Shown: positions 782 to 57,038 of the stretch, piece by piece
Numbering within the stretch: position 1 is the first letter of the stretch
How the letters are laid out: each line of letters begins with the position of its first letter
Sequence record: NC_014792.1
Origin: Escherichia phage vB_EcoM_VR7
Length of the DNA: 64,000 nt
Reading direction: 5' to 3' (one strand)
Made by a program: the position numbers and the translations under genes
Notes under the pieces: generated by a model
The model's database searches: none
What the model was told of the DNA's origin: nothing
Seen by the model: the letters and a program-made list of their open reading frames with translations, nothing else

Positions 782-803
782 GGGCCTTGCGGCCCTTTTT
801 CTT
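782..803 (+). terminator. Rho-independent terminator after capsid gene
   Basis: GGGCCTTGCGGCCC hairpin followed by TTTTTCTT. Confidence 0.6.
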
Positions 804-1806
804 ATGATACTAATTCAACCCATACTGGTCGCAATACTTCTTTGACCATTTCAATTAATTCTTTCTTAACTTCTGATGGGTTATCGGTTTGTTCTAGTGT
901 AATTCCTTCACGAGCCGATTCTTCCAGAATATCCTGGACAGTCAAACCCATTACCTTACCAAAATCTTTAGTAGTTACTTTACCAATCTTACTGATAACG
1001 TTATTAACGCGATTTAATGTAACATAACAAGCCAGAATACTAAGCAAATTATTGTCGATTTCAGACAGTTCTACTTTAGCTTTAATAGGTTTATCAGACT
1101 TTTTCTTTTCACTGAACTTAGAGTTCTTACATTTAATCGCTACGCGATTACCGTTTGGGGCCCATTTAGGATAACATGGCTTTAGAACATAACCTTCGGC
1201 GGTAAATGTCTCGCCTTTAGCTTCAGCTTTCCAAACATGGCTGTTGGCTTCAGTCAATCCGACATTATCAACCATGAAATTATAATCAGGAACAACTGAA
1301 TCTAAGTCATTTGGCAATTGAATAAGGTCTTCAAATTTACCACGCCCTAATAACGGGGCAATTTTAAAACCGAATGATTTACAGAATGAATGCATCATGT
1401 AATCATCGACATAAGTCTCATCACCACTTTCGGTCGTAACGATAATATCGAACACATAAAAGTCTTTTGTGCCATAATCAACGCCTTTCTGGATTCCGCC
1501 GCCCGCAAACTCACCAAATACCTGATAAGATACGGCAGCCGCAGTTTCCATGATTTCTTGTACAGCTTTAATAGAATCAGCGTAATTCTTCAATACAATT
1601 TCATAACCATAAAAGTCTTCAGCTGGAAGAATGGGCCCGGTGCGCTTAGCGCACGTTACTGCATCACGTTCTATGATTAAACTAAAGTTGGTTCCATGAA
1701 TCTTCTCACGTGCTACCCATTCACCATCGGTCATACCATGGGTACGGAGTTTTTCAATGAACTTATTGTTGTAGTGGTTTTCAAGACTCGAATATTTCTT
1801 AAACAT
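802..1806 (-). CDS. rnlB: RNA ligase 2
   Basis: 334 aa; near-identical N-terminus to T4 Rnl2 as recalled ([13 protein letters not shown]...[20 protein letters not shown]); KxHG nucleotidyltransferase motif. Confidence 0.9.
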
Positions 1807-1894
1807 AATTAATTAACCTTATAAATATCATTATAAATTATACCCTCTATACTTTCTTTCTCTGAAAGGAATTAATCGTATCGGAAGGTCTAGA

Positions 1895-1925
1895 ACCATT
1901 ATACCACAATTTTATTTGAAGCAAA
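1895..1925 (-). promoter_or_regulatory. MotA-dependent middle promoter upstream of rnlB
   Basis: Minus strand reads TTGCTTCA, 13 nt, TATAAT, then GGTTCTAGACC. Confidence 0.5.
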
Positions 1926-1929
1926 AAGG

Positions 1930-2530: not shown

Positions 2531-3814
<1,284 letters not shown>

Positions 3815-3941
3815 TGCTACTGGGACTACACAACACGCCCACGAAGTAAAATATTTTATAATAGGACGCGACGGTTATACGGAAAATACTTCTGTTGGTG
3901 CTACTGTTACTATTGAAAAACTCTATAACTAAGGACTACAA

Positions 3942-4760
3942 ATGGCTATTACATTAAGTCCATCTTCAATAGACGTAGAATACGGTGACTCTTATACAGT
4001 CACTGCTAATATTCCAGATATTAGCCCTGGTTCATCTATTGTGTATAACTGGACTAAGAATAAAAAATTTATTAGTTCCGGAACTAATGTATTCACTGAA
4101 ATAGCATCATCGGTAGAAACATTCAGTATTGCGTGCCGAATTGAAATTATATCACCGGATAAAAACACTGAATATATTTTATCGGATTCTTGCTTGGTTA
4201 ATGTTAGTAAAAACACAAAAGCGGACGGTATAAATTCTCAGCTAGTTTATTCACCAGATGTTCATAAAATAGGTGACCAAGTTATTCTTTCTGTAGAATC
4301 CCATCATGTAGACCCTGGCTATATTAAAGGAGTTATTTGGAAAGATCCATCGGGTAATGTCGTGTCAATTGGTAAAGAATATACGCATAAGATTAAGACG
4401 ACAGAAGATGTTGTAGATGTAAAAATAGATTTGGCTTCTGAAAATTATGCCTATTACAATAAAACACTTCAAATTGTTCTTAAAGCTGTTGAAGAAGATA
4501 ATTCGGAGTGTAGTGTAAGATATATTCATCCTTTAGACCACAGGGATTCAGGATACATCTGGATGGGTTGGTGGGTTATGGACGAAATTGAAAGGGCGAC
4601 GGTAGAAGGATTAAATTGGAAAGCGCCGGACGGTACTGACCTGAAGTATAAGTGTGACTTGAAAACTCTTTCTATAATGCTTGACTTATATAATAATGTT
4701 GAAGTACAAGAATCAAGGAATGGTTATATTCTAAACAGGGCAGATTTACTTCCAAAATAA
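3942..4760 (+). CDS. Hoc-like paralog: short Ig-like N-terminal region plus Hoc-type C-terminal capsid-binding domain
   Basis: 272 aa; C-terminus (YIHPLDHRDSGYIWMGWWVMDEIERA...VEVQESRNGYILNRADL) matches the C-terminal domain of the neighbouring hoc product and of T4 Hoc as recalled. Confidence 0.7.
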   Translation: MAITLSPSSIDVEYGDSYTVTANIPDISPGSSIVYNWTKNKKFISSGTNVFTEIASSVETFSIACRIEIISPDKNTEYILSDSCLVNVSKNTKADGINSQLVYSPDVHKIGDQVILSVESHHVDPGYIKGVIWKDPSGNVVSIGKEYTHKIKTTEDVVDVKIDLASENYAYYNKTLQIVLKAVEEDNSECSVRYIHPLDHRDSGYIWMGWWVMDEIERATVEGLNWKAPDGTDLKYKCDLKTLSIMLDLYNNVEVQESRNGYILNRADLLPK

Positions 4761-8435: not shown

Positions 8436-8603
8436 CTAAATTAAAAGTTGGGTCTCGTTCAGTTGCTCTTGAGTATTTTCCGTAACTGGCAAACTCTGAA
8501 CATAATTATAACAGGCGCCCGGATGCACCGGACCTTGGTCTGTATCCACAACCAATGCAGAATCGATTGGAGTTTTACAGACAACACAAATCTTATCTGA
8601 CAT
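8436..8603 (-). CDS. small Cys-containing protein (CxxC...C), not in the ORF track (below 60 aa)
   Basis: 55 aa MSDKICVVCKTPIDSALVVDTDQGPVHPGACYNY...; GAGGAGA RBS; hairpin plus T-run terminator just downstream on the minus strand. Confidence 0.4.
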   Translation of the reverse strand: MSDKICVVCKTPIDSALVVDTDQGPVHPGACYNYVQSLPVTENTQEQLNETQLLI

Positions 8604-8635: not shown

Positions 8636-8740
8636 TTAGTGCTTCTTTAATGCGGCATTAATAAACTGTTGAAATTCACGCATCTTCTCTTCAGAAGGTT
8701 TTAATGGTTTTCTAATATTTGCTTTACGACAACCCATCAT
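8636..8740 (-). CDS. small protein translationally coupled to uvsY, not in the ORF track
   Basis: 34 aa MMGCRKANIRKPLKPSEEKMREFQQFINAALKKH; ATGA overlap with the uvsY stop. Confidence 0.35.
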   Translation of the reverse strand: MMGCRKANIRKPLKPSEEKMREFQQFINAALKKH

Positions 8741-9171
8741 TTACCTGCCTCAAATTGTCTTATTTCTAACATATGTTTAAGTGCGAAACTTCGTGACTTA
8801 ACACCATCTAATGCAGCGCTACAGAAGTCCTGGAGCAGTGCCCAATATTGAATTGAAGTATCAATCTTAAGCACGCTTGAATCTGCAGCCATGACTGTTT
8901 TCAATTCTGACTTCTCGTACACATCCATGCATACTTCTTCCCCTGGGTCACCCCTTCCTGTATAATGGTCTAGTCGTTTTTTCAGTGCAGTCTTCTTCTG
9001 AATCTCAAGACGCATTATTTCTTTCTTGCAGTTAGTATACAATCTCAACCATTTGCTATGCAACAAAACGTTGTTTTGTGTTTCATATTGAATTTGTGTA
9101 CCATCAATTTTTAAATCTGCATCCAACTCATCCTGAAATACTTCCAACTTATATTCAATCTCTGTTTTCAT
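8737..9171 (-). CDS. uvsY: UvsY recombination mediator
   Basis: Matches T4 UvsY throughout (YSKWL..EIMRLEIQKKTALKKRLDHYTGRGD..SRSFALKHMLEIRQFEAGK); start taken at MKTEIEY because the upstream ATG lies inside the promoter. Confidence 0.85.
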   Translation of the reverse strand: MKTEIEYKLEVFQDELDADLKIDGTQIQYETQNNVLLHSKWLRLYTNCKKEIMRLEIQKKTALKKRLDHYTGRGDPGEEVCMDVYEKSELKTVMAADSSVLKIDTSIQYWALLQDFCSAALDGVKSRSFALKHMLEIRQFEAGK

Positions 9172-9196
9172 AATGTATCCAATGTAAGGGTCTAGA

Positions 9197-9226
9197 ACCA
9201 TTATACAGCCATAAAATTAAAGCATT
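9197..9226 (-). promoter_or_regulatory. MotA-dependent middle promoter for uvsY
   Basis: Minus strand reads TGCTTTA, 12 nt, TATAAT, then GGTTCTAGACC. Confidence 0.55.
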
Positions 9227-9614
9227 AACCGTTTTGACTTAACTGAATCCTGATTTGTTCGAGGGTGTCAGGGTCATCAACAATGCTGAACTGAACCGTT
9301 ACGATGATGGAGTTATCATCATACATAGGGACAACCGCAACCTGTAGATTGCTTATCCTTGGTTCGAAGTTCCGCACCGCGGAGACGATGTTGCGTTTAA
9401 TAGTATCTGTGATTAATGGAGTGATATTCTCAAAAAGCTGATTACTTATATCACATCCAAATTCAGGCATAAAAGGCCTTGACCCTTTTCTTGTGGTGAT
9501 TATTCCCAGAAGACTGTTCTTAACAGACCTTGCACCAGTTACTTTAGCAACGTCTTTATCCCAACTCATTGACAAGTCGGGAGGCACATCGCTATACATT
9601 TTGTTTATATTCAT
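9225..9614 (-). CDS. 25: baseplate wedge protein gp25
   Basis: 129 aa; strong match to T4 gp25 (NSLLGIITTRKGSRPF.PEFGCD). Confidence 0.85.
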   Translation of the reverse strand: MNINKMYSDVPPDLSMSWDKDVAKVTGARSVKNSLLGIITTRKGSRPFMPEFGCDISNQLFENITPLITDTIKRNIVSAVRNFEPRISNLQVAVVPMYDDNSIIVTVQFSIVDDPDTLEQIRIQLSQNG

Positions 9615-10297: not shown

Positions 10298-11050
10298 ATG
10301 GCCAATATCGTAAGATGTGAAATGCCAGACGGAGTTCATCGTTTCAAACCGTTTACAGTCGCTGATTACCGTGATTTACTGCTTGTGCGAAACGACATGA
10401 ACAACAAACCCGTCGAAGAACAAAAACAATTATTAGACGAACTGTTAGAAGATTATTTTGGAGAGTATCCGAAAGCATGGAGACCTTACATATTCCTGAA
10501 GGTATTCACTTCCTCTATCGGCAAGACGAAAGTCCCGGTAGCGTTCGAATGTCAAAAATGTAAAAAGACAAAGCAGACTTTGTTTAACATGAGCCAAGGT
10601 CCATTGATAAATCCAACGATGGAAACCGCAGGGATAAAAATACAATTTAAGTTCCCTGAAGTGGAATATAAAGATAAGTCGGAGCTTGTTCTAAACACCA
10701 TCCAGACTGTCGAAGACTCGGAACAAAAGTACAATTGGGAAGACCTTCCTGAAGAAACGAAGATGCAGGTTATTGATGCCATTGATATAGAGAGCCTCGA
10801 AGAGCTCCTTAAGAAAATGCACTCGATTTATCTTCCATTTACATATGGTTGTTGCGAAAAGCACAAAACCGAATACACTGACCTGCTTGATGTCTTTAAG
10901 CTCATCCTTAACCCGGATGAAGTCTTTGTATTTTATCAAATTAACCACTTGCTGGTAAAGAATCAATATTCGCTGGATAGCATCATGCAAATGATTCCTA
11001 TCGAACGAGGTATCGCTTTATCGTTAGTTGAGAAGGACTTGAAGAAATGA
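10298..11050 (+). CDS. 51: baseplate hub assembly protein gp51
   Basis: 250 aa at the T4 gene 51 position; clear paralogy to the adjacent gp26. Confidence 0.65.
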
Positions 11051-12216
11051 CAGCTAAATCTATGCAGCGCGAAGGCTTTCCTAATATCAGCATACGCCTT
11101 TATGAAGATTATGATGCCTGGCTTGAACACCGTTTTGTAGAACTGGCTGCAACATTTACAACGTTAACCATGCGTGATTCCCTTTATGGAAGAAACGAGG
11201 GGCTGTTGCAATTCTATGACACAAAGAACTTACATACAAAAATGAATGGCGAACAAATTATTCAGGTCTCCGTTAAGAATGCCAACTCAGACCGAACCCA
11301 ATCCAGGATATATGGAAGCAAGCACTTTGCTGTTTCTGTGGATGCAAAGGGTGATAACATAATTACAATTCAACTGGCGCCCATTCACGAAATTGAAGAC
11401 CTGAAATTTAGTCGTATGTTTTACCCGAGTGTACAAGAAACATTAGTCGAAATGACCGGGGTAATTTATCAGGACCGACCATTACTTGCTCCTCCGATAA
11501 ACGGCATAAACGTTTATGCTCCTAATGTTCCATGGTGTGATTCGATGAACCAATATATGGAATTCATAAGGGAAGTAGGTCTTGCAGTTGAGTCTGATAA
11601 ATTTGTATTTGTATGGGAAGATATCGATGGCATAAGTATTCAGGATTATGAATGGTTAACTACACAAGAGCCGATTAATTTTGTGGTGGGTGAACCTCGA
11701 TTGGTTGGTCAGTTTGTACAAAACCTCGAGACTCCGTTAGCCTTCGATTTTGAATGGTTAACAAAGGCAAACCAACATACAAGAAAACCATATGAAAACG
11801 CAACCGTGTACGCACATTCATTCCTTGACAAGAATGCAACCAGAATAACTTTTGGGGAAGGACAAAACAGCATTCTGGTATCTCGTTCCGGGGGATATTC
11901 GGATTACACATACCGAAATGGTTTCGAGGAAGCACAACGATTAATAACCATGTCTCAATATGATGGTTACGCGCACTGCAAAACATACGGGAACTTTGAA
12001 TTAACCCCGGGTGATAAGATTAACTTCTATGACCCGAAGAACCAATTCAAATATGATTTTTACGTAGACGAAGTTATTCATGAAGTGAGTAACAATACAT
12101 CAATTACAAACCTCTATATGTTTACCAATGGTAAGCCTATCGAAGTTGAAGAACCACCGAAGGTTAAAAATGAACTTAAAACTGATTCTGCCGACGAAGA
12201 AAATACAGCTGGGTGA
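11047..12216 (+). CDS. 27: baseplate hub protein gp27
   Basis: 389 aa; extensive match to T4 gp27 ([32 protein letters not shown]). Confidence 0.9.
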
Positions 12217-27272: not shown

Positions 27273-27551
27273 TTAAATTGCTTCTGCAATTGCAGTTTGA
27301 TTCTGGAAGTCAACCTTACAAGAAACAGTCAAGGTAGCTCCATCAATTTTGAATGGAACAATTGCAAATGCTGCACCAGGGTGGAGCTGGACAGTGATTG
27401 CATCAACTGCATCCGGGAACATGATTTCCAGAATAGCAGACAAACGACCATGCACTTTTAGTTCAGTCGACACGTCGACGATTTCGTATAGATAATCAGA
27501 TACAATCTGACTAAAAACTAATTTAACAATTTCAGAATATGTAGGAAACAT
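27273..27551 (-). CDS. hypothetical protein
   Basis: 92 aa ORF downstream of a middle promoter. Confidence 0.45.
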   Translation of the reverse strand: MFPTYSEIVKLVFSQIVSDYLYEIVDVSTELKVHGRLSAILEIMFPDAVDAITVQLHPGAAFAIVPFKIDGATLTVSCKVDFQNQTAIAEAI

Positions 27552-27593
27552 TTCTTTTCTCGCTTAGTTATTGGGGTTATCCAAAGGACCTAG

Positions 27594-27623
27594 ACCCATT
27601 ATAACATAAAATTTTTAAAGCAT
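27594..27623 (-). promoter_or_regulatory. MotA-dependent middle promoter
   Basis: Minus strand reads TGCTTTA, 12 nt, TATAAT, then GGGTCTAGGTCC. Confidence 0.5.
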
Positions 27624-27838
27624 TAATGGACGGTGTGAACCCGAACATCAACAACGAATCGGTCGGTGATTTCGACCATCGGTGCAAACTCTACATGATA
27701 TTCACCTTTATATCTTGTGTTCATATCATTACGAATTTTTACCAGCTCATTAATCAGGGCAGGTGACATTCCTTGCCCAGCTAGTTTGTTAAGGAAGCCG
27801 TATGCTTCCTCTTTAATTTCATCGTGTTTATCGTACAT
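27623..27838 (-). CDS. hypothetical protein
   Basis: About 71 aa from MYDKHDEIKEE; start choice uncertain. Confidence 0.35.
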   Translation of the reverse strand: MYDKHDEIKEEAYGFLNKLAGQGMSPALINELVKIRNDMNTRYKGEYHVEFAPMVEITDRFVVDVRVHTVH

Positions 27839-44423: not shown

Positions 44424-47400
44424 ATGGCCGATATTTTAAAACCAGCATTCAGAGCAACATCCGGTCTCGATGCTGCTGGTGAGAAAGTCATTAATGTCGC
44501 TAAAGCTGATTACTCAGTTTTGTCAGACGGCGTGAACGTAAACTTCTTTATAGAAGAAAACACAATTCAACAATATGATGCAACACGCGGATATAAGAAA
44601 GATTTTGCAGTTATTTATGATAACCGTATTTGGGTTTCCCAACGCGAAATCGCAGAACCAGCAGGCTCATTTGTTCAGCAATATTGGACTGCAACCCGTA
44701 CTGACCCGAAATGGGAAACTGTTGCATCACCGACTCGTCAGCTTAATTCCGGGGAATTTATCGCGGTCGACTCAGCTGCAAGCTTTACCACATTTACATT
44801 GCCTCCGAACCCGACTGATGGTGATACCATCGTTATTAAAGATATCGGCGGCAATACCGGTTATAATGAAATCAAAGTTCAATCTAGCAATGTGCCGGGG
44901 CAAGGTAACCAAAAAATTGTTCGTTTTGGTAATCAGTATTCAGAAGTTTTAATTACCAAACCGTTCTCTTATAACATGCTTATTTTCTCCAACCGTTTAT
45001 GGCAGTTCTGGGAAGCAGGGAACGAAGAACGTGGAATAAGAATTGAACCAAGCTCTGGTAAATATCGTGCTCAGGCTGCAGACTTTATTATGCGCCGCTA
45101 CACGACTGCAGAGAAGATTACATTTGTTCTTCCTAAGTATGCTAACCAAGGTGATATTGTCAAATCGGTAGATATAGATGGATTAGGGCCATTATATCAC
45201 CTGGATGTTGAAACGTTTGACGAGTCAAGCTCTCTGGGTAAACAGGGACAGCACAGTATGGAATTCCGTACAACTGGTGATGGCTTCTTCGTTTATAATG
45301 CCACTGAAAAACTGTGGGTGACTTGGGATGGTGATAACAAAACTCGCCTGCGTGTAATCCGTGACAGTGTGAAATTGCTGCCAAACGAAAGCATTATCGT
45401 ATTTGGTAATGATAACAGCACTCCACAGACAATTAACATCGACCTTCCAACGGGTGTTCGTCCTGGGGACGTAGTTAAGATTGCTCTGAACTATCTTCGC
45501 AAGGCACAGACTGTTAATATTAAGGCCACCGCGCTTGATAAAATCGCGTCTTCTGTTCAGCTGCTTCAGTTCCCGAAACGTTCGGAATATCCACCTGACA
45601 CTGAATGGGTATTGGTTGACTCTTTGACTTTCAATGGCAACATAAGTTATACGCCGGTTATCGAATTAAGTTATCTTGAAGATACGGTTAAGAACATTAA
45701 CTATTGGGTTGTTGCACAAAACGTTCCGACTGTTGAGCGTGTTGACTCAAAAGATGATTTGACCCGAGCTCGTCTGGGTGTTATTGCACTGGCTAACCAG
45801 GCTCAGGTTAACGTTGACCATGAAAATAACCCTGAAAAAGAATTAGCAATTACCCCGCAAACTTTAGCTAACCGTGTGGCTACTGAATCACGCCGCGGTA
45901 TTGCACGAATCGCTAACACAGCACAGGTTAACCAGGATACGACTTTTGCTTTCCAGGATGATATTATCGTTTCTCCGAAAAAGTTAAACGAACGTACAGC
46001 TACAGAAACAAGACGTGGGCTCGCAGAAATCGCCACACAGCAAGAAACTGATGCAGGTATAGATGATACCACAATCATCACTCCACGCAAGCTACAAGCT
46101 CGCCAGGGCTCCGAAAGCTTATCGGGTATTGTCAAGTATGTTCCTACTACTGGGACTACTCCAGCTGCAAGTCGTATAACTGTTGGGACTAACGTTTATA
46201 ATAAGAACACAACTAATTTAGTTATTTCTCCTAAAGCTTTAGACCAATATAAAGCTGACCAGAATAACCAAGGTGCTGTATATCTAGCAACTCAGTCAGA
46301 AGTTAACGCAGGGGCAACAAATACAGGATTCAGTAACTCGGCAGTAACTCCTGAAACATTAGGTGCTCGCAGAGCAACAGATTCAAACCACGGTTTAATC
46401 GAGATTGCAACTCAGGTTGAAACTAATGCCGGTACTGATTATACCAGAGCTGTAACTCCTAAAACGTTGAATGACCGTAAAGCAACAGAATCATTATCCG
46501 GCATAGCCGAGATTGCTACGCAATCAGAATTTGATACTGGAACTGATGATACTCGTATTGCAACGCCATTAAAAATTAAAACTAGATTTAATAATACTGC
46601 TCGTACTTCTGTTATTGCAGCAAGTGGTTTAGTAGAAACAGGGACGCTCTGGGACCATTATACGCTGAATATTCTTGAAGCAAATGAGACTCAACGTGGC
46701 ACCGCAAGACTGGCTACTCAGTTGGAAGTAAACACGGGTACTGACGATAAAACAATCGTTACTCCGCTTAAGTTGATGTCGAAAAAAGCTACAGAAGGCA
46801 CCGAAGGTATTGTTCGCATCGCTACTCGCGCAGAAACCATCGCAGGAACAAGTTCAGTTCTGGCTGTTTCTCCGGTAAGTCTGAAATGGATTGTACAGTC
46901 CGAACCAACATGGGCAGCAACCACGACGACACGCGGCTTTGTTAAGATGTCTGAAGGCGCAATTACTTTTGTCGGTAATGCAACCGCAGGTTCCACTCAG
47001 GCTCTTGACCTGTACGAGAAAAATAGCTATGCTATTTCGCCATACGAGTTAAACAAAACCCTTGGTAACTTCCTGCCGCGTTTGGCAAAAGCGGTAGACT
47101 CTGATAAATTGGACAACCTGGACAGTACGCAGTTCGTTCGTCGTGATGTAGCCCAGGATATTAACGCTGCTATGACATTTAAACAGCCTGTAAGAATTGA
47201 AAGTACTTTAACCGTTACAGGTGTGGTTAATTTGAGTGGTTCTATTACTTCAAATAATACTACATTAACCGGTTCTACTACAATCAATAGCAATTCTACA
47301 GTAGGTGCTCTGAATTACATTGAGTTTACTTCAGAATCTCAAGGCTCCGGTACTTGGAACTCCCAACATGATAGTAATGTTAAAGCTCCTGTATTTTTAA

Positions 47401-48299
47401 ATATAACTACTCCGGTAGGCTCATCTAGATATGTTCCTTTAATTAAGCAACGTTATAAAGATGGGACATTTACCTTTGGTACATTGATAAATGAACCCAC
47501 CTCAAATGATGAGGGTGCTTTTATTCTTCACTATATAGATGCGGTAAAACCCCAGCGCAAATGGACCTTTAGACGTAACGGCGATTTAGAAATAACTGCA
47601 GGTAATTTCGTTCTTGGTAATGGGTCTGCTATAATTAACGGGGGTCTTAGTGTTACTAAAGCTTCAGGTATCACAACCACCGGGCTAGTTGCTAATAGTG
47701 AATCTAGATTCGAAGGCGCTGTTACTATTAACAACTTCCTTACGGTAAGCAACAAAGCTACACTTAACAACGGCTTAGCTGTTCAGAAATATGCAAGGGT
47801 TGCAGGAGATAAGACTTCTGATATCTATAGTAGAAAACCTACAATGGATACCGCAGGTTTTTGGTCTGTTGACATTAATGATTCAGCCACATATAATCAG
47901 TTCCCGGGTTATTTCAAAATGGTTGAAAAGACCAACGAAGTAACTGGTCTGCCTTATTTGGAGCGTGGTGAAGAAGTTAAATCACCGGGTACATTAACTC
48001 AGTTTGGTAACACACTGAATTCACTCTATCAAGATTGGATTACTTATCCGAATACGACCACGGCAAGCACCACTCGCTGGACTCGTACATGGCAGCAGAA
48101 CAAAAATGCATGGTCTGGTTTTGTTCAGGTCTTTGATGGTGGTAACCCACCGCAGCCTTCGGATATCGGTGCATTGCCTGCTGATAACGCTTCGATGAGC
48201 AACCTGACTATCAGAGATTGGTTAAGAATCGGTAACGTACGTATTGTTCCGGACCCAGTAACTAAATCCGTTAAATTCGAATGGATTGATACACCATAA
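44424..48299 (+). CDS. 34: long tail fibre proximal subunit gp34
   Basis: 1291 aa; long stretches near-identical to T4 gp34 (SSVQLLQFPKRSEYPP, ATETRRGIARIA repeats, C-terminal FVQVFDGGNPPQPSDIGALP). Confidence 0.95.
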   Translation: MADILKPAFRATSGLDAAGEKVINVAKADYSVLSDGVNVNFFIEENTIQQYDATRGYKKDFAVIYDNRIWVSQREIAEPAGSFVQQYWTATRTDPKWETVASPTRQLNSGEFIAVDSAASFTTFTLPPNPTDGDTIVIKDIGGNTGYNEIKVQSSNVPGQGNQKIVRFGNQYSEVLITKPFSYNMLIFSNRLWQFWEAGNEERGIRIEPSSGKYRAQAADFIMRRYTTAEKITFVLPKYANQGDIVKSVDIDGLGPLYHLDVETFDESSSLGKQGQHSMEFRTTGDGFFVYNATEKLWVTWDGDNKTRLRVIRDSVKLLPNESIIVFGNDNSTPQTINIDLPTGVRPGDVVKIALNYLRKAQTVNIKATALDKIASSVQLLQFPKRSEYPPDTEWVLVDSLTFNGNISYTPVIELSYLEDTVKNINYWVVAQNVPTVERVDSKDDLTRARLGVIALANQAQVNVDHENNPEKELAITPQTLANRVATESRRGIARIANTAQVNQDTTFAFQDDIIVSPKKLNERTATETRRGLAEIATQQETDAGIDDTTIITPRKLQARQGSESLSGIVKYVPTTGTTPAASRITVGTNVYNKNTTNLVISPKALDQYKADQNNQGAVYLATQSEVNAGATNTGFSNSAVTPETLGARRATDSNHGLIEIATQVETNAGTDYTRAVTPKTLNDRKATESLSGIAEIATQSEFDTGTDDTRIATPLKIKTRFNNTARTSVIAASGLVETGTLWDHYTLNILEANETQRGTARLATQLEVNTGTDDKTIVTPLKLMSKKATEGTEGIVRIATRAETIAGTSSVLAVSPVSLKWIVQSEPTWAATTTTRGFVKMSEGAITFVGNATAGSTQALDLYEKNSYAISPYELNKTLGNFLPRLAKAVDSDKLDNLDSTQFVRRDVAQDINAAMTFKQPVRIESTLTVTGVVNLSGSITSNNTTLTGSTTINSNSTVGALNYIEFTSESQGSGTWNSQHDSNVKAPVFLNITTPVGSSRYVPLIKQRYKDGTFTFGTLINEPTSNDEGAFILHYIDAVKPQRKWTFRRNGDLEITAGNFVLGNGSAIINGGLSVTKASGITTTGLVANSESRFEGAVTINNFLTVSNKATLNNGLAVQKYARVAGDKTSDIYSRKPTMDTAGFWSVDINDSATYNQFPGYFKMVEKTNEVTGLPYLERGEEVKSPGTLTQFGNTLNSLYQDWITYPNTTTASTTRWTRTWQQNKNAWSGFVQVFDGGNPPQPSDIGALPADNASMSNLTIRDWLRIGNVRIVPDPVTKSVKFEWIDTP

Positions 48300-50168: not shown

Positions 50169-53100
50169 ATGGCTACTTTAAAAGCGATACAATTTAAAAG
50201 AAGTAAGACAGCTGGTGCCAAGCCTACTGTAGACCAGTTGGTTGAAGGTGAACTGGCTATTAACTTACGCGACCGTACTATTTTTACCAAGTCTGACCAG
50301 AACCAGATTATTGACCTTGGTTTTGCTAAAGGTGGTCAGGTTGACGGCAACGTTACTATTAACGGACTTTTGACCCTTAATGGCGATTACACCCAAACTG
50401 GTGGGATGCAAGTAACTGGTGATATTTACTCTGGTGCAGGCGTTAGCGCCTTAGTTTATCGAGCAAGAAATGGCTCTTTTTATTCAAGAGCATCAAATGA
50501 GACGTCTAACGCCCACATGTGGTTTGAAAATGCAAATGGTTCTGAACGTGGTGTTTTATATGCCAAACCACAGCTTGAAAATGAAGGTACTATTACCATG
50601 CGAGTTAAGCAGGGTACAGCAGCAGGTGCCGGCAATATAGAATTCCATTTTATTTCTTCAGGTGGTGGTATTTTTCAGGCCCCTATTTTAAAGGCTACGA
50701 CATCTATCACCACTCCTACTATTACGGTTAACCTGGTCAATCATGATTTCAAAGCGTTTGGTCAATACGACAGTCAGTCTTTAGTTAACTATGTTTATCC
50801 TGGAACCGGCGAAACGAATGGTGTAAACTATCTTCGTAAAGTTCGCGCTAAGTCCGGTGGCACTATGTGGCATGAGCTTTGTACTGCTCAATTAGGCCAA
50901 GCTGATGAAATTTCTTGGTGGACAGGTAATACTCCACAGTCAAAACAGTATGGTATTCGTAACGACGGACGAATGGCCGGCCGTAATAGCCTTGCATTAG
51001 GTACATTCACTGAAGGTTTCCCATCTAGTGATTATGGTAGCTTCGGTGCAATGGGCGATAAGTATCTTGTTCTCGGTGACATTGCAACTGGTCTGAAATA
51101 TATCAAACAAGGTAATTTTGATTTAGTTGGCGGCGGATATTCTGTTGCGTCAATTACCACAGACGGGTTCCGTGGCACAAGTAAAACCTTATTTGGCCGT
51201 AGTAATGACCAAGGTTTAACATGGCTTCTTCCCGGCCAAAACTCCTCAATGGTTTCAATTCGTACAGAAATTGATGGTAATAACTCCGGTGACGGACAAA
51301 CCCACCTTGGTTATAACAGTAATGGTAAACTTTATCACTATTTTCGTGGTACAGGTCGTGTAGCTATTTCAATGGCTGAGGGGCTTATTGTTGAGCCAGG
51401 AATTTTAGATATTAAAACCGGTTCCAATGGCGTTGCTATTAGAGCGGACGGAACAGTATCTTCAATACAAAGAATTAAATTTGATAACGGATTAGTTCTT
51501 ACTGGTGCTAGACCCGACGGTATTCAACTTGACGCTCCTACAGCAGCAGATGGCACTAAAACTATACTGTGGGCTGGTGGTACTCGCACAGGTCAGAATA
51601 AAAGTTATGTATCTATTAAAGCGTGGGGTAATTCATTTAATGCCACTGGTGATAAATCTCGTGAATCTGTTTTCGAGGTTGCTGATGGTAACGGTTATTA
51701 TTTTTATGCTCAACGCGTAGCTCCTACTGGTGTTGAAACGGTTGGTCCTGTGGTTATGCAATTAGCGGGTAGTTTATTGGCCCGTGGTACATTAAACACT
51801 GATAGCAATCTTTATGTGAAAGGATTGAGTACACATGAAGGTGCTGTGACCATGAATAATGGTCTTCGCTTAGTCGGTGGTTCTTCTATTACCGGCCAAG
51901 TTAAAATCGGCGGAACTGCTAATGCATTAAGAATTTGGAATGCCGAATACGGTGCTATTTTCCGTCGTTCTGAAAGTAACTTTTATATTGTTCCAACCAA
52001 TCAAAATGAAGGCGAAAGTGGAGACATTCACAGCTCTTTAAGACCAGTGAGAATAGGATTAAGCGATGGTGCAGTTGGGTTAGGAAGAGATTCTTTTATA
52101 GTAGATCAAAATAATGCTTTAACTACGATAAACAGTAACTCTCGCATTAATGCTAACTTTAGAATGCAATTAGGACAATCCGCTTATATTGATGCTGAAT
52201 GTACTAACACAGTTAGCCCGGCTGGTGCAGGGACTTTTGCTTCACAAAATAATGAAAACGTTCGTGCTCCATTCTATATGAATATTAATCGTACAGATAC
52301 AAGTACTTACGTTCCTATTTTGAAACAACGATATGTCCAAGGAAACAGTTGTTATTCTCTGGGAACTCTACTTAACGGCGGTAACTTCAGAGTTCATTAT
52401 CATGAAGGCGGCGACAATGATTCAACAGGCCCTTTAGTTAAATACTATGGGTGGGAATTCAATAGAACAGGCGATTTTATTTCCCCTGGTAAATTAGGTG
52501 CTGGTGCGGTTCGTATTGGTACTGACGGTAATATTACAGGTGGTTCTGGCAACTTTGCTAACTTGAACAGTACAATCGAATCGCTTAAAATCGATATTGT
52601 ATCAAGCTATCCAATTGGTGCCCCTATTCCATGGCCAACAGATACTCCTCCTGCTGGTTATGCTTTAATGACGGGTCAAACCTTTGATACCGGAGCTTAT
52701 CCTAAACTGGCTGTTGCGTATCCTAGTGGGGTTATTCCGGATATGCGTGGACAAACTATCAAAGGTAAACCAAGTGGTCGAGCTGTGTTGAGTGCGGAAG
52801 CTGATGGTATTAAGTCTCACAACCATGGCGGCTCTGTTGCGAGTACTGATTTAGGTACTAAGACCACCTCATCATTTGATTATGGTACTAAGACCACCTC
52901 ATCATTTGATTATGGTACTAAAACCAGTAACACAACAGGTAACCATAACCATAGCGTTAGTGGTACTACTAGCTCGGCTGGTGCTCATACCCATACACTT
53001 ACATTTCATAATGGCGCTTCCAGCGGTGGTTCTGTGGTCGGTGCAAGTCCTTCCGATTATACGGCAAAAACTACAACTACTAGTTCAGCCGGTGCTCATA

Positions 53101-54576: not shown

Positions 54577-54848
54577 AATCCGGAGGTATACATCATCAGA
54601 TATCGGTGTATATCTTCGAATCCTTCGTTAAATTGTTCAATGATTTGTTCAATTTCATCTTCAGATAAACTTTTAAACAACTTGTTAAACGATACATTGT
54701 TTAACTCATTCCCATTCTCATTCCTCAATCCCAACTCATTCAAAAACGCGATAAACACATCACGCTTCATCGTAATATCTTCCCGGTCGGTTTTAATCAA
54801 AATAGATGTAACGGTAACAATTTCAGAAACGATTTCAAATTTAGTCAT
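54573..54848 (-). CDS. asiA: AsiA anti-sigma70 factor
   Basis: 91 aa; match to T4 AsiA (EIVTVTSILIK..REDI...R..FIAFLNE.G; C-terminal DEFNEGFE..YRYL.MYT). Confidence 0.85.
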   Translation of the reverse strand: MTKFEIVSEIVTVTSILIKTDREDITMKRDVFIAFLNELGLRNENGNELNNVSFNKLFKSLSEDEIEQIIEQFNEGFEDIHRYLMMYTSGF

Positions 54849-56429: not shown

Positions 56430-57038
56430 TCACTTTAAGATGTTAATAACATGCTGAATGTTTTCAGTTGACATATGATTGTCAATGTAGGTATTCAATC
56501 CACCTACTTTAACGCTAAATCCCACGTCTGTAAACTGTTTTACTATCTTTTGTTCAGTATTATATGCATGCACGCGAATCTGACCATCACGTCGCACATC
56601 AATCTGTTTTAATGTCTTGACACGCTTGAACTTCACAATCAAATTACTGCGGTCTTCTGAAATGCTCTTAAAGTCAATACCAATGGACAACAATTGCTCT
56701 TTGATATATTCTGCAGTCGCTTCCATTTCATCAGTCACACCGCGTTTTGTTCTTGTCTTCTTTACTTCCAGAAGGTCAGGATTATTTTCATTTGCCCAAA
56801 GTTCAGCTGCATCCAGAATAAGGTCAACACCCTTTTCTGTAATCATCAAACCATCACCAGAAGCTTCAACATAGTTGTTATTCAACAATGTCTGTACGCT
56901 ATCAATTGATGTGTTCTGCTGGTCTAAAACAACCTCAGGACGAACAAAGTTGTTTTTGTATACAAACACCAGAGCATTAACATCAGTCTCGTGTAGAGCG
57001 TTCTGGGAGCATTTAACGATATAATTTAACTTGTTCAT
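56430..57038 (-). CDS. motA: MotA middle-transcription activator
   Basis: 202 aa; T4 motA position; partial motif match (E.SGDGL.IT..G); call is moderate. Confidence 0.65.
   Translation of the reverse strand: MNKLNYIVKCSQNALHETDVNALVFVYKNNFVRPEVVLDQQNTSIDSVQTLLNNNYVEASGDGLMITEKGVDLILDAAELWANENNPDLLEVKKTRTKRGVTDEMEATAEYIKEQLLSIGIDFKSISEDRSNLIVKFKRVKTLKQIDVRRDGQIRVHAYNTEQKIVKQFTDVGFSVKVGGLNTYIDNHMSTENIQHVINILK

Follow-up and report, generated by a model that had tools for sequence, protein, structure and literature searches.

The middle promoters of phage T4 depend on MotA and AsiA (sigma appropriation), and transcription starts 6-8 nt past their sigma70-type -10 element (TAtaaT). They carry a MotA box, (a/t)(a/t)(a/t)TGCTT(t/c)A in consensus, located 12 +/- 1 bp from the -10 element; mapped starts have been listed for 58 of them (Hinton 2010, Table 1 of that paper, PMC2988021). 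Downstream of the -10 element, RNA polymerase itself has sequence preferences: a purine-rich discriminator of the GGG type is read by sigma and places the start at position 7, and a non-template G is preferred immediately past the start, in the core recognition element (PMC5730371). We analysed 64,000 nucleotides of Escherichia phage vB_EcoM_VR7 (NC_014792.1; this whole stretch is referred to as the window, and coordinates are window coordinates unless another genome is named). Directly after the -10 elements of three middle promoters in the window, those of rnlB, uvsY and a cd.3 homologue, lies a 12-bp sequence, here called the block. The block is real and is conserved at a subclass of MotA-dependent middle promoters; we found no description of it in the accessible literature on T4-type middle promoters and origins.

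The phage is T4-like and belongs to the genus Gaprivervirus; the window aligns to positions 106,812-170,821 of Escherichia phage vB_EcoM_VR25, with about 97.6% identity over most of its length. All three sites read on the minus strand. TATAAT is followed by GGTTCTAGACCT at 1886-1903, by GGTTCTAGACCC at 9188-9205 and by GGGTCTAGGTCC at 27586-27603, in each case 12-13 bp downstream of a MotA box and upstream of rnlB, uvsY and the cd.3 homologue, respectively. An earlier note on this DNA had proposed a nearly identical block at three middle promoters, and both its placement and the promoter type are confirmed: the MotA boxes, the spacers and the perfect TATAAT hexamers (Table 1) agree with the consensus for MotA-type promoters. 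The note was also right that the block extends beyond the generic middle-promoter consensus, which in its published form stops at -10. The phage encodes orthologues of MotA (56439-57038, minus strand; 34% identity, E 2e-28) and AsiA (54582-54830, minus strand; 53% identity, E 4e-23; both by tblastn with the T4 protein). Even though its MotA orthologue shares just 34% identity with that of T4, the phage has MotA boxes that cannot be told apart from the T4 consensus.

The likeness of the three sites is well beyond chance expectation. The 18-mer TATAATGGKTCTAGRYCC, which combines the -10 element and the block, has three matches in the window with at most one mismatch, against 0.00 expected from 100 shuffles, and the same three matches alone with at most three mismatches (0.20 expected). 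At up to two mismatches the 12-mer block by itself is not enriched in the window (18 matches against 13.6 expected), and no good copy exists besides the three at promoters. The block is absent from the other middle-type promoters of the window with a TATAAT hexamer (62749, 58900, 44384, 42348 and 20576), and the promoter at 46682 has a partial version, GGTCCCAGAGCG. The tetranucleotide CTAG is 4-5-fold depleted in the window (100 observed against 463 expected, both strands). Observed and expected CTAG counts are 218/1238 for VR25 and 512/1101 for T4; CTAG is nevertheless retained in some places, one of them the block. We also noted a sharing pattern opposite to that of the block family: the rnh promoter (44384, minus strand) and the cd.3 promoter (27622, minus strand) have the same MotA box and spacer (TGCTTTAAAAATTTTATG) and different start regions.

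Mapped T4 starts define where transcription begins relative to the block. When the positions of Hinton are placed on the T4 sequence, +1 of PuvsY (115371) and of PnrdC.7 (53325) falls on the A immediately behind TCT, at the seventh base past TATAAT, and +1 of P34i (153011) is the equivalent A (TATAATGGTCCC/AGAGAG, the slash marking the start). Many T4 middle promoters begin at CT/A in general. By homology with T4, transcription in the window should begin at the equivalent A of each copy (Table 1), which bears out the proposal that the block spans the start site. With +1 on the central A, the block therefore consists of a discriminator (-6 to -1) and the initial transcribed sequence (+1 to +6). 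The longest open reading frame (ORF) at uvsY (8737-9201) begins at an ATG inside TATAATGG, in frame with uvsY. The true start of uvsY is the ATG at 9171, and the start at 9201 is an ORF-finder artefact, because it lies upstream of the predicted transcription start.

In the complete genomes of VR25, which is the closest complete relative, and of T4, we scored every -10-like hexamer by the fit of the next 12 bases to the block. The scores are separated by a sharp gap: a score of at least 10 of 12 is reached by five VR25 sites, and 12 of 12 by four T4 sites; the rest score at most 9 in both genomes, with the exception of one T4 site that scores 10 and lacks a MotA box. All nine high-scoring sites combine a perfect TATAAT with a MotA box, which has CGCTT in three cases and TGCTT in the others. 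In VR25 they comprise the uvsY, rnlB and cd.3 promoters and two sites on the plus strand, one at 73694 between gene 3 and the mobB-like gene/gene 2, the other at 11029 between srd and modA. Two diverged VR25 copies lie before nrdC.6, where one base is deleted, and in antisense orientation between genes 18 and 19. The four perfect T4 members are PuvsY (TATAATGAATCTAAGTCC), PnrdC.7 (TATAATGGTTCTAAGCCC) and two sites on the plus strand, at 11885 between srd and modA and at 75988 between genes 3 and 2. PuvsY and PnrdC.7 are among the 58 listed middle promoters; the two plus-strand members are not. Scans of the window, VR25 and T4 revealed no block at a non-promoter position, and those of the window and relatives no copy away from a -10 element or in another register.

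The two unlisted T4 sites (NC_000866, 11861-11902 and 75964-76005, both plus strand) are conserved MotA-type promoters that are absent from Hinton's 58 and unannotated in T4 records. From the predicted srd/modA promoter, transcription would begin 11 nt past the stop codon of modA and proceed into modA/modB in antisense orientation; from the predicted gene 3/gene 2 promoter it would run antisense to genes 2 and 4.

A scan of IMG/VR returned the same four T4 loci in two complete T-even genomes and subsets of them on partial T-even contigs. The window-type block occurs at the rnlB, uvsY and cd.3 promoters of VR20, VR25, VR26, VR5 and JS98-like phages; comparison with VR25, VR26 and VR20, the close relatives, thus upholds the earlier proposal. 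JS98 has orthologues of both T4 plus-strand promoters (L135:1685-1730 and L136:3880-3925). In T4, cd.3 is not preceded by a promoter, and PrnlB is located elsewhere and lacks the block. The genes served also differ: the transcripts include the uvsY, rnlB, cd.3 and nrdC.7 mRNAs as well as antisense transcripts without an ORF. The promoter is therefore what they have in common, and among the MotA-type middle promoters of the Tevenvirinae the block marks out a discrete subclass.

Position by position, conservation was assessed in 29 distinct block variants from many lineages and loci. The 5' half and the start are the most constant (G-6 in 29/29, G-5 in 27/29, T-3 in 24/29, C-2 in 23/29, T-1 in 27/29 and A+1 in 25/29), and positions +2 to +6 are variable. 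Orthologues of the uvsY promoter from about 17 lineages show the same trend, keeping GGNYYTA and changing in the 3' half: the 12 bases after TATAAT read GGTTCTAGACCC in the window phage, GGTCCTATGGTT in JS98, GGTCCTACGGTC in VR5, GAATCTAAGTCC in T4, and GGGTCTATGGGT, GGGACTAGTCCT and GGTTCTAGTTCC in other lineages. Dyad symmetry is not maintained. The three window copies have symmetric bases at four (rnlB), five (uvsY) and four (cd.3) of six pairs, an imperfect palindrome, and the mean over the 29 variants is 2.52 of six pairs, compared with 2.51 in a control in which right halves were shuffled among the sequences. The T4 version TCTAAGTCC is non-palindromic, and the T4 and JS98 sequences at uvsY are asymmetric. 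Symmetry is not a property of the family, and the TCTAGA palindrome is therefore particular to the window lineage. The earlier description of the block as palindromic thus holds, as a near-palindrome, for the window copies; as a selected feature of the family the palindrome is rejected by the 29-variant test, and it is incidental.

Copies within one genome are alike for some 30 bp, with the -10 element and the start in the middle of this tract, and differ in their spacers and leaders. Between T4 PuvsY and the T4 promoter at 11885 (+), identity is complete from TGGTATAAT to +6 and almost complete up to +14 (common tract TGGTATAATGAATCTAAGTCC(A/T)TCCA(A/T)TA), and the spacers are unrelated; the T4 promoter at 75988 (+) reads TGGTATAATGGGTCTAAGTCCCTTCCATTC. 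The rnlB and cd.3 promoters of VR5 are identical at 18 of 18 positions and have different spacers and leaders. In copies of the VR25 lineage the block is followed by TT, often as TTTGGWTAA. The window cd.3 block is directly followed by TTTGGATAA, which is common to other VR25-lineage copies, and past the rnlB block the likeness to paralogues extends, with TTCC, to about 1882. The 3' version is particular to each lineage: CTAAGYCC in T4, mostly CTAGGTCC in JS98 and mostly CTAGACC in the window phage. A hand count over three loci in three genomes, which is suggestive only, gave 8.8 of 12 block positions shared between paralogues and 7.0 of 12 between orthologues. A 3' half that is lineage-specific yet similar among paralogues points to promoter copies that were duplicated or kept alike.

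Larger promoter modules are repeated in related genomes. A cassette of more than 100 bp, consisting of a MotA box, caaaattttgatg, TATAAT, GGTTCTACCGGTTCACCGCTCTAATTATATCT and a conserved leader, is present in four copies in IMG/VR 2974608788 (L217-L220) and in two copies in IMG/VR 2974656882 (L179, L180). From these four- and two-copy cassettes of promoter plus leader we conclude that promoter modules multiply in T4-like phages. The diverged antisense copy between genes 18 and 19 of VR25 (98520-98590, minus strand) belongs to the same cassette. One cassette copy lies after gene 25, in the position of the uvsY promoter, and two run for 130-170 nt to a bidirectional terminator without an ORF and have the look of small RNA genes. 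No Rfam family or tRNA was found near the related cassettes. In a phage of about 167 kb (L023, L031, L033) we noted another MotA-type promoter, with TATAATGGGTCTAGGTCC followed by the CTAG-rich ctagttctagataatcactagttgac. It is divergent from the adjoining gene start, and has no ORF directly downstream and no tRNA or Rfam match.

Table 1. Promoter elements and genes of the three block-containing middle promoters, and the P34i orthologue (window coordinates).
Feature	Coordinates	Strand	Remarks
MotA box, rnlB promoter	1917..1926	-	TTTTGCTTCA, 13-nt spacer to -10
-10 element TATAAT, rnlB promoter	1898..1903	-	TGG before it (extended -10, TGn)
rnlB block, -6..+6	1886..1897	-	GGTTCTAGACCT; predicted +1 = A at 1891, T4 register
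rnlB (RNA ligase 2), gene behind promoter 1	802..1806	-	83% identity to T4 RnlB (tblastn)
MotA box, uvsY promoter	9218..9227	-	TAATGCTTTA, 12-nt spacer to -10
-10 element TATAAT, uvsY promoter	9200..9205	-	
uvsY block	9188..9199	-	GGTTCTAGACCC; predicted +1 = A at 9193
uvsY, gene behind promoter 2	8737..9171	-	61% identity to T4 UvsY (tblastn)
MotA box, cd.3 promoter	27616..27625	-	TAATGCTTTA, 12-nt spacer to -10
-10 element TATAAT, cd.3 promoter	27598..27603	-	TGT before it (TGn)
cd.3 block	27586..27597	-	GGGTCTAGGTCC; predicted +1 = A at 27591
cd.3 homologue, gene behind promoter 3	27273..27551	-	92 aa, Pfam DUF7355, 43% identity to T4 Cd.3 (tblastn)
P34i orthologue	46645..46685	-	TTTGCTTCA, 13 nt, TATAAT, GGTCCCAGAGCG; predicted +1 = A at 46650

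We see about an even chance that the block is a core-promoter module read by RNA polymerase, comprising the discriminator, the start and the initial transcribed sequence, with a 3' part that is co-inherited among copies. In that case the polymerase itself would read the block, which would be the start-proximal part of MotA/AsiA-dependent middle promoters that form a distinct and conserved subclass. Transcription would begin at the central A, seven bases past TATAAT; GGK TCT, the 5' half, would serve as discriminator, and the first six transcribed bases would come from the 3' half, A R R Y C C. The G-rich discriminator would be contacted by sigma region 1.2, fixing the start at position 7, T-1/A+1 would supply the pyrimidine/purine start, and G+2 of the window lineage would satisfy the preference of the core recognition element just past the start. 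The promoter copies may have been duplicated, or kept alike, as a unit of about 30 bp (-16 to +15), and the palindrome of the window phage would be a lineage-specific by-product. Known polymerase determinants explain GG..TCTAG, and the fixed register to the -10 element together with the absence of copies elsewhere is to be expected of a polymerase element and not of a free-standing operator.

Several observations weigh against a polymerase module. Known determinants do not explain +3 to +14: the likeness among paralogues reaches about +14, past the known sequence-specific polymerase contacts (-6 to +2). The 3' half differs by lineage (CTAAGTCC in T4, CTAGGTCC in JS98, CTAGACC in the window phage). 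Since all of these phages use an E. coli-type polymerase, a pure polymerase optimum should be the same everywhere. The tetramer at -6 to -3 recurs exactly at +3 to +6 in 7 of the 29 variants (GGTT, GGTC, GGGT and GGCT), compared with a shuffle mean of 2.4 (P about 0.0004, uncorrected for relatedness), a repeat for which a polymerase module offers no explanation. The block is also carried by a minority of middle promoters, namely three of about ten in the window, and 2 of the 58 mapped T4 promoters plus the two unlisted ones. Finally, the start sites assumed here for the window phage are transferred from T4.

In appearance, the tetramer repeat resembles a tandem duplication of ATGGKYYY with the second copy beginning at +1; other variants have an inverted copy of the tetramer in place of the direct repeat. 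A leaderless ORF starting at the ATG of the direct-repeat variants was considered and rejected, as it is in frame with uvsY in one lineage only. Nor does the start region look like an NAD-capping promoter, for which the consensus is HRRASWW: positions -2 and -1 do not fit. A sigma-dependent pause caused by a -10-like element in the transcribed part was likewise rejected, as no hexamer with A at position 2 and T at position 6 is present.

Other explanations are less probable. If the copies were simply recent and the block had not yet diverged, shared ancestry alone would account for it. Multi-copy promoter cassettes do exist in related genomes, and the presence of promoters varies by lineage, as the cd.3 and rnlB promoters of T4 illustrate. 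However, the spacers and leaders of paralogues are already unrelated, whereas the G+C-rich block is kept; it persists at orthologous sites across at least three genera, it holds the otherwise depleted CTAG, and an informal comparison suggests that its positions evolve more slowly than flanking intergenic ones. We therefore regard ancestry alone as highly improbable. The earlier note had suggested an RNA 5' hairpin, and the DNA is indeed self-complementary in the window lineage, but this idea can be excluded. With +1 at the centre of the block, by homology with the T4 starts, the transcript holds the 3' arm only, so that a hairpin of the whole block is impossible in transcripts, and the palindrome is absent in T4 and JS98. 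Computed folding agrees: RNAs containing the whole block, as produced by read-through, were somewhat less stable than shuffles (z of +0.2 to +0.9), a short RNA beginning at +1 gave z of -0.25, and none of these values was significant. A signal in the leader RNA itself is another possibility. In this reading the sequence from +1 to about +14 (A-R-R-Y-C-C-(C)-U-U...) would be a 5'-terminal signal for stability, processing, translation control or priming, and otherwise unrelated transcripts would share the same 5' ends, AAGTCC(C)TTCCATT in T4 copies and AGACC(Y)TT... or TTTGGATAA in the VR25 lineage. We consider it quite unlikely, given that the best-conserved positions, -6 to -1, are untranscribed and the 3' half is the least conserved across lineages, that no structure is predicted, that the transcripts include both mRNAs and ORF-less antisense RNAs, and that Rfam has no match anywhere in the window. 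An operator, also proposed by the earlier note, would be recognised by a phage or host DNA-binding protein, either as the whole block or as GGKY tetramers around +1, and would co-regulate a subset of promoters, for example in a timed shut-off. The near-palindrome across the start site of the three window copies fits such a role, as do the genome-specific versions among paralogues (four CTAAGYCC in T4, three to four CTAGACC in VR25), which would be expected from co-evolution with a trans-acting factor, the covariation of the tetramers at -6 to -3 and +3 to +6, and the similarity reaching +14. An operator is made less plausible by the symmetry, which is not conserved in T4, JS98 or other lineages; moreover, the block stands in an absolutely fixed register to the -10 element with no copy elsewhere, and no candidate protein was identified, UvsY.-2 having been considered superficially only. 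We consider an operator unlikely. Overall, the interpretation offered in the earlier note is partly supported.

UvsY.-2 (8436-8603, minus strand) is a 55-residue protein encoded in the uvsY operon, with a zinc-ribbon-like CxxC-x17-HxxxC pattern and an acidic tail; a homologue in another lineage is encoded directly behind a repeated promoter cassette. A TraR/DksA-like function was not supported, as Pfam gives DUF2685 only. The possibility that the reverse complement of the block is a second MotA box was dropped upon inspection: the T4 sequences GCTTAGA/ACTTAGA are superficially similar to one, the window version is not.

The remaining explanation concerns DNA replication. The window uvsY promoter is the positional orthologue of T4 PuvsY, the primer promoter of oriF, and T4 annotates oriF at this locus. 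A promoter inside gene 34 (44424-48299, plus strand) is the orthologue of T4 P34i, the primer promoter of oriG (Table 1); it shares GGTYCYAGA with the block and is a looser relative of the family. These two are the only window middle promoters of the set at positions of mapped T4 origins, and the rnlB and cd.3 promoters have no T4 origin counterpart. If the block marked primer or R-loop promoters of the oriF/oriG type, the rnlB, cd.3 and antisense copies would be additional or cryptic origins. Beyond the orthology at uvsY and the TATAATGGTYCYAGA that P34i shares with the family, this reading can draw on three family members that, like P34i, are antisense and have no gene to express, and on the other T4 copies (at 11.9, 53.3 and 76.0 kb) lying 3-6 kb from oriA, oriC and oriE, for which our own rough estimate of chance occurrence is about 3-4%. 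We nevertheless find it very unlikely. The oriF and oriG sequences share little homology, T4 origins have no common motif and R-loop formation is sequence-independent (Kreuzer and Brister review, PMC3016281). The promoter of oriA, P56, lacks the block, and the oriE iterons are unrelated, being GTTGAAGGTAAT coding repeats in gene 5 that we rejected as relatives of the 12-mer. The composition downstream is not distinctive either: the 50 bp after the start are no more A+T-rich or G-poor than at other T4 middle promoters, the A+T fraction over +1 to +50 being 0.62-0.72 in VR25 copies (0.62-0.68 for the three window promoters) and 0.68 +/- 0.06 for the 58 T4 promoters. The reverse complement of the cd.3 leader, TTATCCAAA, is identical to the R3 DnaA box of oriC; the match was judged to be due to chance, because it is not common to the other copies.

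A further possibility, which we put forward as doubtful, is that the block marks a small regulon of middle promoters, among them the oriF primer promoter and conserved, predicted antisense promoters directed towards modA, gene 2 and gene 18. Control would be exerted at the start region, where the GGKY tetramer stands twice around +1, by a phage factor or by a special mode of initiation of the appropriated polymerase; such initiation may, for example, be escape-limited, primer-generating or R-loop-prone. Some of the sites could in that case act as antisense shut-off switches or be T4-type origins that have escaped recognition. If a subset of promoters that is found in several genera and counts PuvsY/oriF and PnrdC.7 among its members has a conserved extension from -6 to +14, middle promoters would not form a uniform class. 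The extension is a concrete, mutable sequence that may bear on timing, strength, promoter escape or origin competence. The predicted antisense MotA-type promoters of T4 could explain the shut-off of modA/modB (early ADP-ribosyltransferase), or could bear on the picture of T4 origins.

Apart from the promoters, the comparison with VR25 showed little or no alignment at window positions 2676-4754 and 50344-53097. According to the VR25 annotation these segments correspond to hoc-like/collagen-repeat ORFs and to the tail-fibre tip region. They represent module replacement in a genome that is otherwise 97-98% identical.

Operators that overlap the start site and bind dimeric repressors, such as the I-TevI autorepressor site in T4, resemble the block of the window phage in being near-palindromes centred on +1. 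They differ from it in that the symmetry of the block is not conserved in relatives and its register to the -10 element is invariant. Another parallel is with the PeSL cassettes, mobile regulatory modules of T4-type phages that combine an early promoter with a stem-loop and were reportedly described by Arbiol, Comeau and Krisch in 2010. Both are short intergenic promoter modules that recur within a genome and lie at boundaries of variable gene sets, but the block family is MotA-type, has no stem-loop, numbers 3-7 copies per genome and shares the core alone, so that the multi-copy likeness is an analogy only. The T4 promoters of oriF and oriG are matched in the window by orthologues of PuvsY and of P34i, the latter with a related start (GGTCCC/AGAG); unlike these primer promoters, the block is also found at the ordinary gene promoters of rnlB, cd.3 and nrdC.7, and the origins are reported to have no common motif and a downstream element that acts independently of sequence. 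The discriminator of lambda PR, GGTTGC, is similar to that of the block. With the sigma70 G-rich discriminator and core recognition element the block shares GG(G/T) after TATAAT, a start at position 7, T-1/A+1 and G+2 (PMC5730371); those determinants span -6 to +2 only, and leave the conserved +3 to +14 and the lineage versions unexplained. The family can also be set beside the MotA/AsiA middle promoters of T4. It has a MotA box at -30, a 12-13 bp spacer and a perfect sigma70 -10 element, often with TGn, the phage encodes both MotA and AsiA, and the members PuvsY and PnrdC.7 have been identified experimentally in T4. To the published consensus, which ends at -10, the family adds 12-20 bp (-6 to +6, and more weakly to +14) in a minority of the promoters.

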